NCBI GenBank assembly: GCA_022567305.1
Contig: JADFHF010000004.1
Location: forward strand, 40,623-104,622
DNA: 64,000 nucleotides
Direction: 5' to 3'
From: Bacteroidota bacterium
GTDB taxonomy: Bacteria; Bacteroidota; Rhodothermia; Rhodothermales; UBA10348
Shown: positions 61,002 through 63,438 of the stretch, in pieces
Numbering within the stretch: the first letter of the stretch is position 1
How the letters are laid out: every line of letters starts with the position of its first letter
Translations under genes and position numbers: made by a program
The notes under the pieces: model-generated
Told to the model about the DNA's origin: nothing
Databases searched by the model: none
The model's input: the letters and a program-made list of their open reading frames with translations, nothing else

Positions 61002-61147
61002 ATCGGTCTCGTTGTTCCCTACGGATCGATCTGATAACTTGACATGTTAGCTCTGTAAGACGTTCTTACGGTGCGCTGTCGCTGCGGCAGACATTCGGGC
61101 ACGTTTTTTCAGTGCCACCTGCTATCAACCGTCAATTCCTACGCTCT

Positions 61148-62461
61148 ATGTCCTGGCATAAAAAACTCCATTGGCAGATCATGATCGGCCTGGTTTTGGG
61201 CCTTATTTACGGTGTAATTGCGGCGGCGGCTGGCTGGGGCGATTTCACATCAGATTGGATCGCTCCATTCGGACAGATCTTCCTGAATCTCCTCAAATTG
61301 ATTGCCGTGCCTCTGATTTTGGCTTCTCTGATTACAGGTGTGGCCTCCCTGTCGGATATGAAGAAGCTTTCCCGGATCGGAGGAAAGACGATTGGCATTT
61401 ATATAGGGACGACACTGATAGCCCTGGTTATTGGCTTGGTTCTGGTGAATGTCCTTCAGCCTGGATCGTCCGTACCGCCGGAGATGAGAGAGAAGCTGGA
61501 GGCCACGTATCAGGACGACGTGGAGACGCGAACCCTGTCCGCAGAAGACATCGCCGAAAATAGCCCGCTGCAGCCCATCGTCGATATGGTGCCCGATAAC
61601 ATCTTCTCGGCCACGACGCGCAACCGAGATATGCTAAAAGTGGTCTTCTTTGCAATCTTCGCGGGAATCGCGATTCTAATGATTCCGGGTGGGAAAGGAC
61701 AACCACTGCTCGATTTTTTCTCAGCCATCAATGAGATGGTGATCAAGATGGTTCAGATCATCATGTACATGGCTCCAGTGGGTGTGTTCGCACTTCTGGC
61801 CGATGTGATTACGTCAGTTGCCGGGGATGACCTCAGAGCAATTCTGGAATTGATCTCGGCGCTGGGGTTTTACAGTATTACAGTTCTGATGGGGCTCTTT
61901 CTTCACATGAGCATCACGTACACGGGCCTCATAAAATTTATGACACCGCTAAGGGTGCGAGATTTTTATCGCGCTCTCGTGCCCGTTCAGCTGGTGGCAT
62001 TTTCCACGTCCTCCAGCGGCGCTACGCTCCCAGTAACGATGGAAACCTGCGAAAAGGAGATTGGCGTATCCGAAGAAGTTTCGTCTTTTGTTCTACCGCT
62101 CGGAGCGACCATCAATATGGATGGAACCGCTCTCTATCAGGCTATCGCCGCCGTGTTTATTGCTCAGACCATCGGGATGGATCTCGGACTGGGCGCCCAG
62201 CTCACGATTGTCTTTACGGCGCTGCTGGCTTCCATCGGAACGGCAGCGGTCCCGGGAGCTGGCATCGTGATGCTGATCATTATCCTGGAAGCGGTCGGTG
62301 TACCAGCCGCAGGAATCGGGCTCATCCTGGGCGTCGATCGAATTCTTGACATGTGCCGAACCGTTACGAACGTAACCGGTGATGCGGCGGTCGCCACCAT
62401 CATCGCGGCAAGTGAGGGGGAGCTCAAACTTGCTCCCGTCACCGGAGCGGTCTCATCCTGA
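61148..62461 (+). CDS. dicarboxylate/amino acid:cation symporter (DAACS, GltP-like)
   Basis: Start taken at MSWHKKLHWQIMIGLVLG. Contains ...FSTSSSGATLPVTM... and ...LGATINMDGTALYQ..., which are DAACS hairpin motifs. Confidence 0.85.
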   Translation: MSWHKKLHWQIMIGLVLGLIYGVIAAAAGWGDFTSDWIAPFGQIFLNLLKLIAVPLILASLITGVASLSDMKKLSRIGGKTIGIYIGTTLIALVIGLVLVNVLQPGSSVPPEMREKLEATYQDDVETRTLSAEDIAENSPLQPIVDMVPDNIFSATTRNRDMLKVVFFAIFAGIAILMIPGGKGQPLLDFFSAINEMVIKMVQIIMYMAPVGVFALLADVITSVAGDDLRAILELISALGFYSITVLMGLFLHMSITYTGLIKFMTPLRVRDFYRALVPVQLVAFSTSSSGATLPVTMETCEKEIGVSEEVSSFVLPLGATINMDGTALYQAIAAVFIAQTIGMDLGLGAQLTIVFTALLASIGTAAVPGAGIVMLIIILEAVGVPAAGIGLILGVDRILDMCRTVTNVTGDAAVATIIAASEGELKLAPVTGAVSS

Positions 62462-62574
62462 ATCTGGCGTGTTTTCGATATTTGAGACAGATCTGACCCG
62501 ATTTCTCAAAATGAAAAATCGTCCATACGTCCATTTTTTGCTTTTTTGCGCAGCATATCTCCATAATTCACAGT

Positions 62575-63115
62575 TTGGCATCATATTCGAGTAAGCACGT
62601 GACAGTTCATTGCTTTGTTGTCACGTATTTGGGTTACGTAACTCGCTGAATCAGAACGCTGATTCCCCATCGAGACGCTTGATCCACCCTCAACGCCACC
62701 CTCTGGCTTCGGAAACGGTTCCCTCACTGTAAAACCCGCCCTCACGGGTTTCGAAACCGTATTGATTCACACGCCCCTCAAGTGTGAATCATTTAGGCAG
62801 CGATTGTCCCTGACAAATCCCCCTCACGCTTGCTTCCAACCCTCAAGGAAGCCAGCGCTTGTCAGGGCTTGAACTTGAATCGTAAGCGTAACGCTTGCGG
62901 TCAGTATCGAGAGATACCCCTTTAGGAACTTCTCCTATTCCAGGAAGCACCAACCCCCGATATGAATTCGTGAATACGGTCATCGCGGTATAGACCCTCA
63001 TTCTTATACACGCGGCTGCAGCAACAGCAGCGCACGATTTCATCTCTTCTGGAATAGGAGCGGTTCCGTTCTTCAGGGTGAAATGTGGCATTCAGGCTGA
63101 TCAATCCAGACCCCT
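62575..63115. ncRNA. candidate structured non-coding RNA (unclassified): hairpin array with 7 x CCCTCA; strand unresolved, with weak evidence for +
   Basis: There is no credible ORF, at least 10 hairpins and one long-range 15-bp helix. The hexamer is strongly over-represented and sits mostly in loops. See the first finding for coordinates. Confidence 0.35.
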
Positions 63116-63123
63116 TGCTCCCG

Positions 63124-63161
63124 AAGCAAAAACGCCCCGCCATTGAAAAATGACGAGGCGT
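63124..63161 (-). terminator. rho-independent terminator downstream of tRNA-Arg
   Basis: On the minus strand, ACGCCTCGTCA-TTTTTCAA-TGGCGGGGCGT forms an 11-bp stem with two G.U pairs, followed by TTTTGCTT. The G.U pairs become A/C mismatches on the plus strand. Confidence 0.7.
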
Positions 63162-63178
63162 CTGCAGCTCTCGAGCTG

Positions 63179-63252
63179 CGCGCTTGAGAGGATTCGAACC
63201 CCCGGCCTCTGGAACCGGAATCCAGCGCTCTATCCAACTGAGCTACAAGCGC
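63179..63252 (-). tRNA. tRNA-Arg (anticodon CCG)
   Basis: The reverse complement is GCGCTTGTAGCTCAGTTGGATAGAGCGCTGGATTCCGGTTCCAGAGGCCGGGGGTTCGAATCCTCTCAAGCGCG. It folds as a cloverleaf with a 7-bp acceptor stem, anticodon loop TTCCGGT and T-loop GGTTCGAATCC. No CCA is encoded. Confidence 0.9.
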
Positions 63253-63438
63253 TAACGGTGCGCAATATACCCACTGGTGACACGCGTCGCCAGGGTGGGA
63301 GAGTCCCACTCAGACGCGAAGTAAACGAGTTGGACCCAATCCCCGACCCACGTTGAAAAACGACTCGAAAGTTGATAGCAGAACTAGATCGTGTGAGGCG
63401 CCTGTCTCATACGATTCTGTGTTAATGACGGATACCAT

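Follow-up and report, generated by a model that had tools for sequence, protein, structure and literature searches.

CsrB and RsmZ titrate CsrA, and CrcZ titrates Hfq/Crc. CrcZ and CrcY of Pseudomonas, together with NrsZ, are intergenic small RNAs (sRNAs) whose -24/-12 promoters are controlled by CbrB or NtrC, response regulators of the enhancer-binding type; these RNAs of 200-400 nt contain several repeats of a functional unit. The cuckoo RNAs of alphaproteobacteria consist of two to four hairpins, each bearing an anti-Shine-Dalgarno (aSD)-like CCUCCUCCC in its loop, with variable stems and a variable number of modules (PMC4615179). The 6C, LhrC, and Rsa RNAs are reported to bind G-rich ribosome-binding regions of several mRNAs through C-rich or UCCC loops (PMC6486639, PMC4132741, PMC2790875). 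Here, we analyzed an intergenic gap in a 64,000-nt stretch of contig JADFHF010000004.1 from a Bacteroidota bacterium (hereafter the window, whose coordinates are used throughout). Judging from its sequence, the gap seems to hold an uncatalogued conserved regulatory RNA gene of Rhodothermales, which lies between a transporter gene and a tRNA gene and is predicted to be read from the plus strand.

The element is conserved and syntenic, displays multiple exposed copies of one short motif, carries compensatory changes in its stems, and is absent from Rfam. A genuine conserved non-coding RNA (ncRNA) gene is thus very probably present in the gap. The gap is flanked upstream by an SDF-family transporter gene (Pfam PF00375, 1.4e-126; stop codon 62459-62461) and downstream by a convergent tRNA-Arg(CCG) gene, beyond which a sigma-70-family gene is located. 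A preliminary description of the stretch had found no credible open reading frame (ORF) in the gap and had proposed a structured or titrating ncRNA. The missing ORF was confirmed, and a dedicated structured ncRNA, rather than a spacer or a repeat family, was supported. No ORF in the gap is longer than 82 aa (the two longest, of 82 and 73 aa, are on the minus strand), and the differences between orthologues in these ORFs include indels of 1 and 2 nt, which are not multiples of three. The ncRNA is backed by synteny in 33 loci, by the compensatory changes, and by the strand asymmetry and exposure of the motif.

Relatives were collected with the transporter as an anchor, which gave 80 loci (cited below by L numbers) from species-representative genomes, mostly metagenome-assembled genomes of Rhodothermales. 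The most conserved block supplied a search pattern, TTGGCAYCANNYTNG-N11-14-CAGTTCMTTG, which matched 16 of the 80 anchored loci; L004 was recognized as a diverged seventeenth member in which TTGGTACGA replaces TTGGCAYCA. In metagenome contigs, the same pattern retrieved 15 further true copies and 11 coding false positives. A profile of the promoter block and the 5' end separated 33 true loci, scoring at least 34.7 bits, from everything else, which scored at most 15.5 bits. The 33 loci correspond to 28 distinct sequences from about 20 lineages of Rhodothermales genomes and metagenomes. Their gene order is identical: SDF transporter, inverted GTCTC/GAGAC pair, TTGGCAYCAnnYTNG, CAGTTCMTTG, 5' hairpin, variable body, the hairpin shared with the convergent tRNA-Arg(CCG), and the sigma factor. 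The homologous region that the preliminary description had called for was therefore found as an orthologous, syntenic element. In L001, the transporter is 91% identical and the entire region has 81% nucleotide identity over 693 nt, whereas the copy in L002 is more diverged. The syntenic loci L007, L009, and L022 have only a short spacer and lack the element. The body varies from ~110 nt (L016 and L026) to ~580 nt in the window lineage; in the shortest bodies CCCUC is absent and AUCCUCA is present, with GAUCCACCUC as well in L026.

The earlier failure to match the region to any known RNA family agreed with Rfam 15, where 62400-63300 returned only tRNA at an E-value cut-off of 10, as did the whole window and 17 related loci at gathering scores. 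Literature searches returned nothing on ncRNAs of Rhodothermales or Rhodothermus, nor on CCCUC sRNAs.

The body is built around a single motif. All seven CCCTCA copies and the CCCTCT copy listed previously were confirmed on the plus strand, with CCCTCA starting at 62687, 62721, 62739, 62775, 62821, 62840, and 62995 and CCCTCT at 62699. In 315 nt, ~0.045 CCCTCA would be expected versus the seven seen (Poisson p ~1e-13), and the other 63.7 kb of the plus strand contain only nine copies, which makes a local cluster by chance extremely improbable. In 22 non-redundant members, CCCUC was counted 80 times versus 15.4 expected from composition, and its reverse complement only twice. The motif logo is Y-CCCUC-R, the core being followed by A in 51% and by G in 23% of the copies; YCCCUCR is present in eight copies in the window and in zero to nine across the relatives. 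The enriched motif is therefore CCCUC and, as had been stated before, not the GGA motif of CsrA.

Given the repeated appearance of the hairpin units and the frequent integration of foreign DNA at tRNA genes, one might suspect a dispersed REP/MITE-like repeat or chance palindromes in a spacer beside a tRNA integration site. However, over the whole window CCCTCA is not enriched (33 found versus 30 expected), and hairpins with a CCCTC loop outside the element are sporadic, with two on the plus strand and five on the minus strand, as would arise by chance. The units share only the loop and not the stems, the element is single-copy per locus across 867 kb of related DNA, and it is orthologous and syntenic across an order. 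A dispersed repeat is refuted for the window and the examined loci, and this explanation as a whole is scarcely credible.

The motif is strongly exposed. In partition-function folding, the probability of being unpaired averaged 0.79 over the motif bases versus 0.36 over the rest, and in the minimum free energy (MFE) structures 42 motifs were located in hairpin loops, 34 were otherwise unpaired, 30 were partly paired, and 10 were in stems. In the window, the copies at 62721 and 62739 had unpaired probabilities of 0.93 and 0.99, respectively. The CCCUC loops comprised 5 nt (nine loops), 6 nt (five), 7 nt (six), 8 nt (two), or 9 nt (three), and the pentaloop U[CCCUC]A was the most frequent unit. 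The spacing of adjacent motifs had its mode at 17-23 nt (20 of 62 spacings), which results from a recurring pair, in which a stem carries one motif in its loop and the other occupies the linker immediately 5' to that stem. The working parts are the multiple single-stranded YCCCUCR motifs, which alternate between linkers and hairpin loops of 5-9 nt, and the stems are free to change. In addition, 17 of the 28 members contain a G[AU][AU][CU]C..C[CU]UC element within their first 130 nt, versus 1.6 expected from shuffles. In the sub-lineage of L013, L014, L028, and L098, an internal GGAGGG at about RNA positions 60-95 pairs with the RNA's own CCUCC in a long hairpin (AAAAGGAGGGUGC...GCAUCCUCCUUUU), so that one motif is masked by a Shine-Dalgarno (SD)-like sequence inside the RNA itself.

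The plus strand of the region folded with -196 kcal/mol and z = -7.5 against dinucleotide shuffles, compared with z = -4.9 for the minus strand; the long members of the family gave z-scores from -4.8 to -10. The hairpins and the long-range helix of the preliminary description were all recovered, either by the search for inverted repeats or in the MFE fold. The inverted repeats were 62597-62604/62619-62626, 62648-62654/62659-62665, 62732-62738/62745-62751, 62763-62772/62782-62791, 62808-62816/62859-62867 enclosing 62827-62837/62847-62857, and 62881-62889/62891-62899. The long-range helix, 62925-62943/63049-63067, comprised 19 nt with 89% complementarity. The MFE fold contained the GAGA-loop hairpin 62904-62917 and the hairpins 62984-63014 and 63015-63031.

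Compensatory changes, which had been named as a check of the structure, were found. RNAalifold predicted 118 pairs, 23 of them changed on both sides, in a structural alignment of the window with L001, L082, L002, and L089, i.e., five sequences of three lineages from which the structure itself was derived. Of the alignment cells, 87.4% were paired versus 34-43% in slid controls; the controls had only two to six pairs changed on both sides, and none of 500 shuffles reached the observed values. The clearest single compensatory case is the hairpin at 62763-62791, helix 9 of the alignment, whose stem reads TTCACAC/GTGTGAA in the window, TTCGCGC/GCGTGAA in L001, and GCTTCCA/TGGAAGG in L002 around a constant CCCTC loop. 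The helices of the nested domain (10 and 11 of the alignment) showed both one-sided and two-sided changes, and its inner hairpin is the best-conserved element of the body, whereas the 3' domain, which includes helices 14 and 16-18, is specific to the window lineage and was found, besides the window, only in L001, L082, L002, and L089. The arms of the 5' hairpin are GGCAG/CTGCC, GGGCAG/CTGCCC, GGCAGT/ACTGCC, GGACA/TGTCC, or ATACAG/CTGTAT depending on the lineage, and those of the window are replaced by GCGTGACA/TGTCACGC in L002; this co-variation indicates that the RNA includes these bases. In the wider family, the stem sequences are unrelated and the loops are alike, which may be regarded as the paralogue-level counterpart of covariation. 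Two further pairings were rejected. A long-range helix after the first motif (CUCGAG...CUCGAG), recurrent in the MFE folds of several lineages, was individually not significant against shuffles. In some relatives, the 5' box could form 7 bp, interrupted by a bulge, with the beginning of the sigma-factor gene downstream; the window does not retain this pairing, which was taken as chance.

The functional strand is probably the plus strand. This assignment relies on gene architecture: the promoter-like block points rightwards, as do the upstream sites phased to it, and the block is preceded by a terminator-like hairpin. On the minus strand, the body is separated from the tRNA by a strong terminator, after which no conserved promoter follows. 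The shuffle z-scores favored the plus strand in 14 of the 19 members scored, out of 28, but the structure-based tests together do not decide the strand. Internal G.U-type mismatches numbered 10 versus 17 of the A.C type, so that the argument for the plus strand that the preliminary description had drawn from G.U pairs failed; the structure conservation index of the alignment was 0.50 on both strands; and the terminal hairpin in the window has no good plus-strand U-tract.

Conversely, the product could come from the minus strand, either as a read-through trailer of tRNA-Arg or as a separate RNA displaying (Y)GAGGG(R) loops, which are SD-like or contain GGA; the TTGGCA...CAGTTC block would then be the 3' domain of the RNA. 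The structure tests do not separate the strands, the minus strand has a slightly lower raw folding energy, 42% of the motifs would read GAGGGA and thus contain GGA, and both G.U pairs of the terminal hairpin in the window fall on this strand. However, every member has a strong intrinsic terminator (a hairpin followed by 5-8 U) between the tRNA and the body, and the part past this terminator is the least conserved and has no conserved minus-strand promoter. The best-conserved block shows -24/-12 geometry on the plus strand only and is phased to the upstream sites. With the z-scores also pointing to the plus strand in those 14 members, a minus-strand product is improbable.

The gene is predicted to have its own promoter. 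The most conserved block of the locus contains TGGCAY and a G at -13 in all members, a geometry similar to that of sigma-54 -24/-12 promoters (reference TGGCAC-N5-TTGC); in the window, positions -25/-24 would correspond to the GG at 62577-62578 and position -13 to the G at 62589. Conservation starts abruptly at TTTGG, which places the promoter information within ~26 nt of the start and fits a promoter of the -24/-12 type. From this geometry, sigma-54 dependence appears on balance the better interpretation, although several features weigh against it. The C at -12 is replaced (by A in the window, by A or T in the family), giving T[CGA]G[A/T] instead of TTGC, with TTCG, TTGG, CTGG, and TTAG among the family variants of the -12 region. 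The co-varying arm of the 5' hairpin starts 2-7 nt upstream of the canonical sigma-54 +1, and in the window it starts at 62597, i.e., 5 nt upstream of the predicted +1 at 62602. Furthermore, neither the window nor any of the 106 loci contained rpoN, an RpoN-box gene, or a GAFTGA activator gene. Canonical TGGCAC-N5-TTGC sites were not found in the non-coding DNA of the loci either, so that the consensus used for comparison is not calibrated on these genomes. The supplement of PMC12316311 records sigma-54 genes in two cultured Rhodothermia, Rhodothermus marinus and Salinibacter ruber; a literature search for rpoN of R. marinus returned nothing relevant.

Other promoter types were considered. The sigma-70-like TTGCTT-N18-CATAAT at 62538-62567, pointed out in the preliminary description, does exist, but it is not conserved in L001, L002, and L082 and failed the consensus scan; no conserved sigma-70-type promoter was found across the relatives of the locus. 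A Bacteroidetes-type sigma-A promoter (TTTG at -33 and TAnnTTTG at -7, ending in the TTTGG of the block) was rejected, since the TA is never present and the -33 element is not conserved. TTSG-N14/15-GTTCATTG was also rejected, since its start would fall downstream of the co-varying hairpin.

Upstream of the block, GTCTC lies 34-52 nt before the proximal GAGAC in most members, and the distance from GAGAC to TGGCA is fixed at -68 in 12 lineages, at -92 in the window lineage and L003, and at -110 in the short-form lineage. Such fixed phasing over unconserved DNA suggests a constraint at the DNA (promoter) level and not on the RNA. GTCTC/GAGAC are thus candidate sites for an activator (enhancer-binding protein), which may bind within the range of 80-150 bp expected for sigma-54. 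The palindrome between these sites and the block keeps its core, TTCTCA-N3-TGAAAA, only in L001, L002, and L082, and is possibly a third, degenerate activator half-site or a DNA-bending site. The features are listed in Table 1.

Table 1. Features of the predicted RNA gene and its borders in the window.
Feature	Position	Strand	Remarks
Distal upstream site GTCTCATCCTGAATC (consensus GTCTCGAWTTGATCC)	62450..62464	.	Overlaps transporter stop codon
Proximal upstream site TTCGATATTTGAGAC	62474..62488	.	Inverted copy of distal site; family partner ends WTTGAGAC
Palindrome CGATTTCTCAAAATGAAAAATCG	62499..62521	.	Inverted repeat between upstream sites and promoter block
Promoter-like block TTGGCATCATATTCGA	62575..62590	+	Most conserved block (TTGGCAYCAnnYTNG); fixed spacing to CAGTTC
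5' hairpin ACGTGACA/TGTCACGT, loop with GTTCATTGCTTTGT	62597..62626	+	Inverted repeat; arms co-vary across lineages
Predicted transcript	62598..63161	+	~530-565 nt, longest form in the family; both ends predicted
Invariant box CAGTTCATTG (family CAGTTCMTTG)	62603..62612	+	In every member; 12-13 nt after promoter block
First motif pair, TGATCCACCCTCA then ACGCCACCCTC	62680..62703	+	Conserved; TGATCCACCCTCA is the GAWCC..CCUC element, 62680-62692
Motif pair: CCCTCA (62721) in small loop/linker and hairpin AAACCCG[CCCTCA]CGGGTTT (62732-62751)	62721..62751	+	
Hairpin TGATTCACAC[GCCCCTCAA]GTGTGAATCA	62763..62791	+	Inverted repeat; stem swapped in relatives
Nested domain: outer helix CCCTGACAA/TTGTCAGGG, linker CCCTCA (62821), inner hairpin loop AACCCTCAA (62840)	62808..62867	+	
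3' domain: 19-bp closing helix, hairpin loop GACCCTCATTCT (CCCTCA 62995), GCTGC/GCAGC hairpin	62925..63067	+	
Hairpin ACGCCCCGCCAT/ATGACGAGGCGT	63132..63161	.	tRNA-Arg terminator on the minus strand (then TTTTT)
tRNA-Arg(CCG)	63178..63252	-	Convergent neighbor; ARAGORN; Rfam 66.3 bits; syntenic in all members

The CAGTTCMTTG box would lie at or just after the predicted start site (~62598-62602). At the other end, the hairpin beside the tRNA is likely the 3' boundary of the plus-strand RNA; an equivalent is present in every member, with a plus-strand U-run of 1-4 U (for example, GGGTTTTG in L006 and L097).

The strict synteny with the transporter and the sigma-factor operon, and the weak plus-strand terminator in some members, the window included, could also fit a cis-acting element. 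This would be either a long structured 3' untranslated region of the transporter or a leader running through the antisense tRNA into the sigma-factor operon. However, in many members a hairpin with a T-run, resembling a transporter terminator, stands directly upstream of the promoter block and hence between the transporter and the conserved part, and the upstream sites together with the promoter-like block imply a separate start. The sigma-factor gene could be reached only through a stable hairpin, the antisense tRNA, and the tRNA promoter. In addition, L007, L009, and L022 demonstrate that the flanking genes do not need the element. A cis-acting role therefore has a low probability.

We tentatively propose, at somewhat less than even chances, that the locus encodes a plus-strand sRNA with its own transcription unit, whose aSD-like, C-rich motifs act multivalently by pairing to GAGGG-type RNA sites. 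On this proposal, 62575-63161 would be an independent structured sRNA gene. Its activator-dependent, sigma-54-type promoter TTGGCATCATATTCGA would drive transcription with a regulator bound to the inverted GTCTC/GAGAC sites ~90-125 bp upstream. Transcription would begin around 62598-62602, and the RNA would carry the invariant CAGUUCMUUG in its 5' hairpin and end at or near the hairpin shared with the convergent tRNA-Arg. The motifs would pair with G-rich (Y)GAGGG(R) sites, which, with SD use being rare, should single out a few mRNAs or another RNA. Upon activation, a single molecule of the sRNA could occupy several such sites and alter their translation or stability. An SD-like sequence (GGAG, GAGG, or AGGA within 30 nt of the start) precedes only about 5 of the 34 ORFs of at least 200 aa in the window, and this rarity would make GAGGG sites selective. 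The real start of the transporter itself (MSWHKKLHWQ, 61151) has no SD in any relative.

A possible target was noted in the operon that follows the tRNA in the relatives. This operon encodes a sigma factor, a CPBP-type protease, a small DUF2007-like protein (M..DGW..VF..G.DYEADLVRDRL), and CdsA; the family names other than that of the sigma factor were read from the sequences and not from Pfam (for example, L006:7902-8210 and L013:7742-8065), and the window ends before the DUF2007-like gene. GGAGG(G) or another SD-like 4-mer was found upstream of this gene in 14 of the 16 RNA-positive loci versus neither of the two syntenic RNA-negative loci.

Several points speak against base pairing. The DUF2007-like gene has no SD-like sequence in L082, the closest relative of the window, or in L004, and the lead it offers is weak because complementarity to the motif is inherent in every SD. 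The invariant core has only 5-6 nt, and many motifs sit in tight pentaloops. The multiplicity of motifs within one molecule and their 17-23-nt spacing are more typical of a sponge.

These features lead to a second mechanism with the same gene and promoter, in which the YCCCUCR loops and linkers bind an RNA-binding protein, possibly a dimer, that is titrated upon induction. A KH, RRM, or cold-shock-type protein could be involved, or a factor normally residing on the C-rich 3' tail of 16S rRNA. Many strongly exposed sites per molecule, a single gene per locus, a site number of 0-9 between lineages, and a short invariant core in tight loops, most commonly U[CCCUC]A, would all be expected of a sponge. 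So would the linker/loop pairs with 17-23-nt spacing (20 of 62), which resemble the twin sites of CsrA dimers, and CrcZ sets a precedent for a sigma-54-dependent sponge RNA. The enrichment of GAWCC..CCUC near the 5' end also fits, as this element loosely recalls the 16S rRNA 3' tail (GAUCACCUCC end); the match is inexact and serves only as a lead, and the true 16S tail does not satisfy the search pattern used for this element. Against the sponge, literature searches found no bacterial global regulator that binds CCCUC, and we know of none; no gene for a candidate protein is linked to the locus; and the published C-rich-loop sRNAs that were found all act by base pairing. A protein sponge is therefore possible but doubtful. 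The comparison with CsrB/RsmZ made in the preliminary description was fair with regard to architecture, whereas titration, which it also suggested, is one of two live mechanisms, the C-rich-loop analogues being RNAs that base-pair.

It is rather unlikely, but conceivable, that the RNA is a decoy of the ribosome's aSD tail, with the GAUCC..CCUCC element and up to nine CCCUC loops mimicking or competing with the 16S 3' end. Such a decoy could sequester a few strong-SD mRNAs (e.g., that of the DUF2007-like gene) or titrate a protein that holds the 16S tail (bS21-, Era-, or KH-type).

Some additional elements were observed in the neighborhood. In the promoter region of tRNA-Arg (63253-63285 of the window, minus strand), TATATT(T/G)(G/C) is located ~10 nt before the mature 5' end and is kept in the relatives; the version in the window is GGTATATTGCGC (minus strand). 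About 45 nt further upstream, a ACAAACTTTGTG box is conserved in most relatives and absent from the window. Approximately 75-110 nt upstream of the transporter start, a promoter-like CTTGATTTG-N15-GTTCTTTG is present in L005, L008, and L012. Its second box, which resembles the CAGTTCATTG box of the RNA, is also found in L006, and the equivalent in the window (near 61040-61060) has CGTTCTTACGG. The flanks of L018 and L031 contain short tandem repeats near gene ends that are unrelated to the RNA element, namely CTCACTC/CTCCTCA runs in L018 and GGATTTT and GGGCAAAT runs in L031.

To our knowledge, there is very little information on the regulatory RNAs of Rhodothermales and of related Bacteroidota, which are generally described as being without Hfq and CsrA. 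The locus offers a clean example, with a conserved promoter and putative activator sites, a defined 5' box, and a natural series of zero to nine motifs, and its body evolves by gain and loss of hairpins around one invariant 5-nt motif. If the motifs pair with GAGGG sites, the solution of a C-rich loop set against a G-rich ribosome-binding site would have arisen again in an SD-poor phylum and would point to the few mRNAs that still rely on SD-like sequences. If the RNA is a protein sponge, a new global RNA-binding regulator would be revealed. A decoy would amount to a switchable genome-wide control of SD-dependent translation, which, as far as we know, has not been described in any bacterium. 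With either pairing or a sponge, the GTCTC/GAGAC and TTGGCAY signature would provide a handle on the regulon and the activator.

Comparison with the described systems demonstrated that RNAs of this kind, modular and with one C-rich motif on display, are already known, whereas this family lies outside Rfam and the literature found. The closest architectural match is the cuckoo RNA (RSs0680/CcsR and SmelA075/A099; RF02344). Both have hairpin modules, a C-rich aSD-like loop motif, variable stems, a varying number of modules, and a conserved neighborhood. However, the motif is CCCUC(R) in loops of 5-9 nt and in linkers here, but CCUCCUCCC in loops of 9-27 nt in cuckoo RNAs, and the present RNA has up to nine motifs in up to ~560 nt with multiloops and long-range helices instead of two to four simple adjacent hairpins. 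It occurs in Rhodothermales as a single copy per locus with a sigma-54-like promoter and upstream sites, whereas cuckoo RNAs form clusters in alphaproteobacteria. RF02344 gave no match in 62400-63300 at E-values up to 10, and no gathering-score match in the window or the 17 relatives.

With CsrB, RsmY, and RsmZ, the RNA shares a short motif repeated in loops and linkers, variable hairpins, and a site number that varies between species. In CsrB/RsmZ, however, the motif is (A)GGA/ANGGA and transcription is GacA/UvrY-dependent with sigma-70, while here the motif is CCCUC on the predicted strand, the promoter is sigma-54-like, and Rfam gives no match. The motif of CrcZ is A-rich (AAnAAnAA) and largely unstructured, and the modules of NrsZ are sequence-level repeats, unlike those of this RNA. 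CrcZ and NrsZ also adjoin their regulator genes, whereas the present locus has no linked activator gene, a non-canonical -12 element, and a putative sigma-54 dependence. Redundant C-rich motifs in loops or single-stranded segments are common to 6C (actinobacteria), LhrC (Listeria), RsaE/RoxS (Firmicutes), and this RNA, for which pairing is a proposal. The 6C, LhrC, and RsaE RNAs are ~60-120 nt long with two to three CCCCCC or UCCC motifs and belong to other phyla with wide SD use; the present RNA measures ~110-580 nt, carries up to nine motifs, and has no Rfam match to them. The novelty of the family with respect to these analogues thus lies in its motif, loop size, overall size, nested and long-range structure, phylum, and type of promoter.

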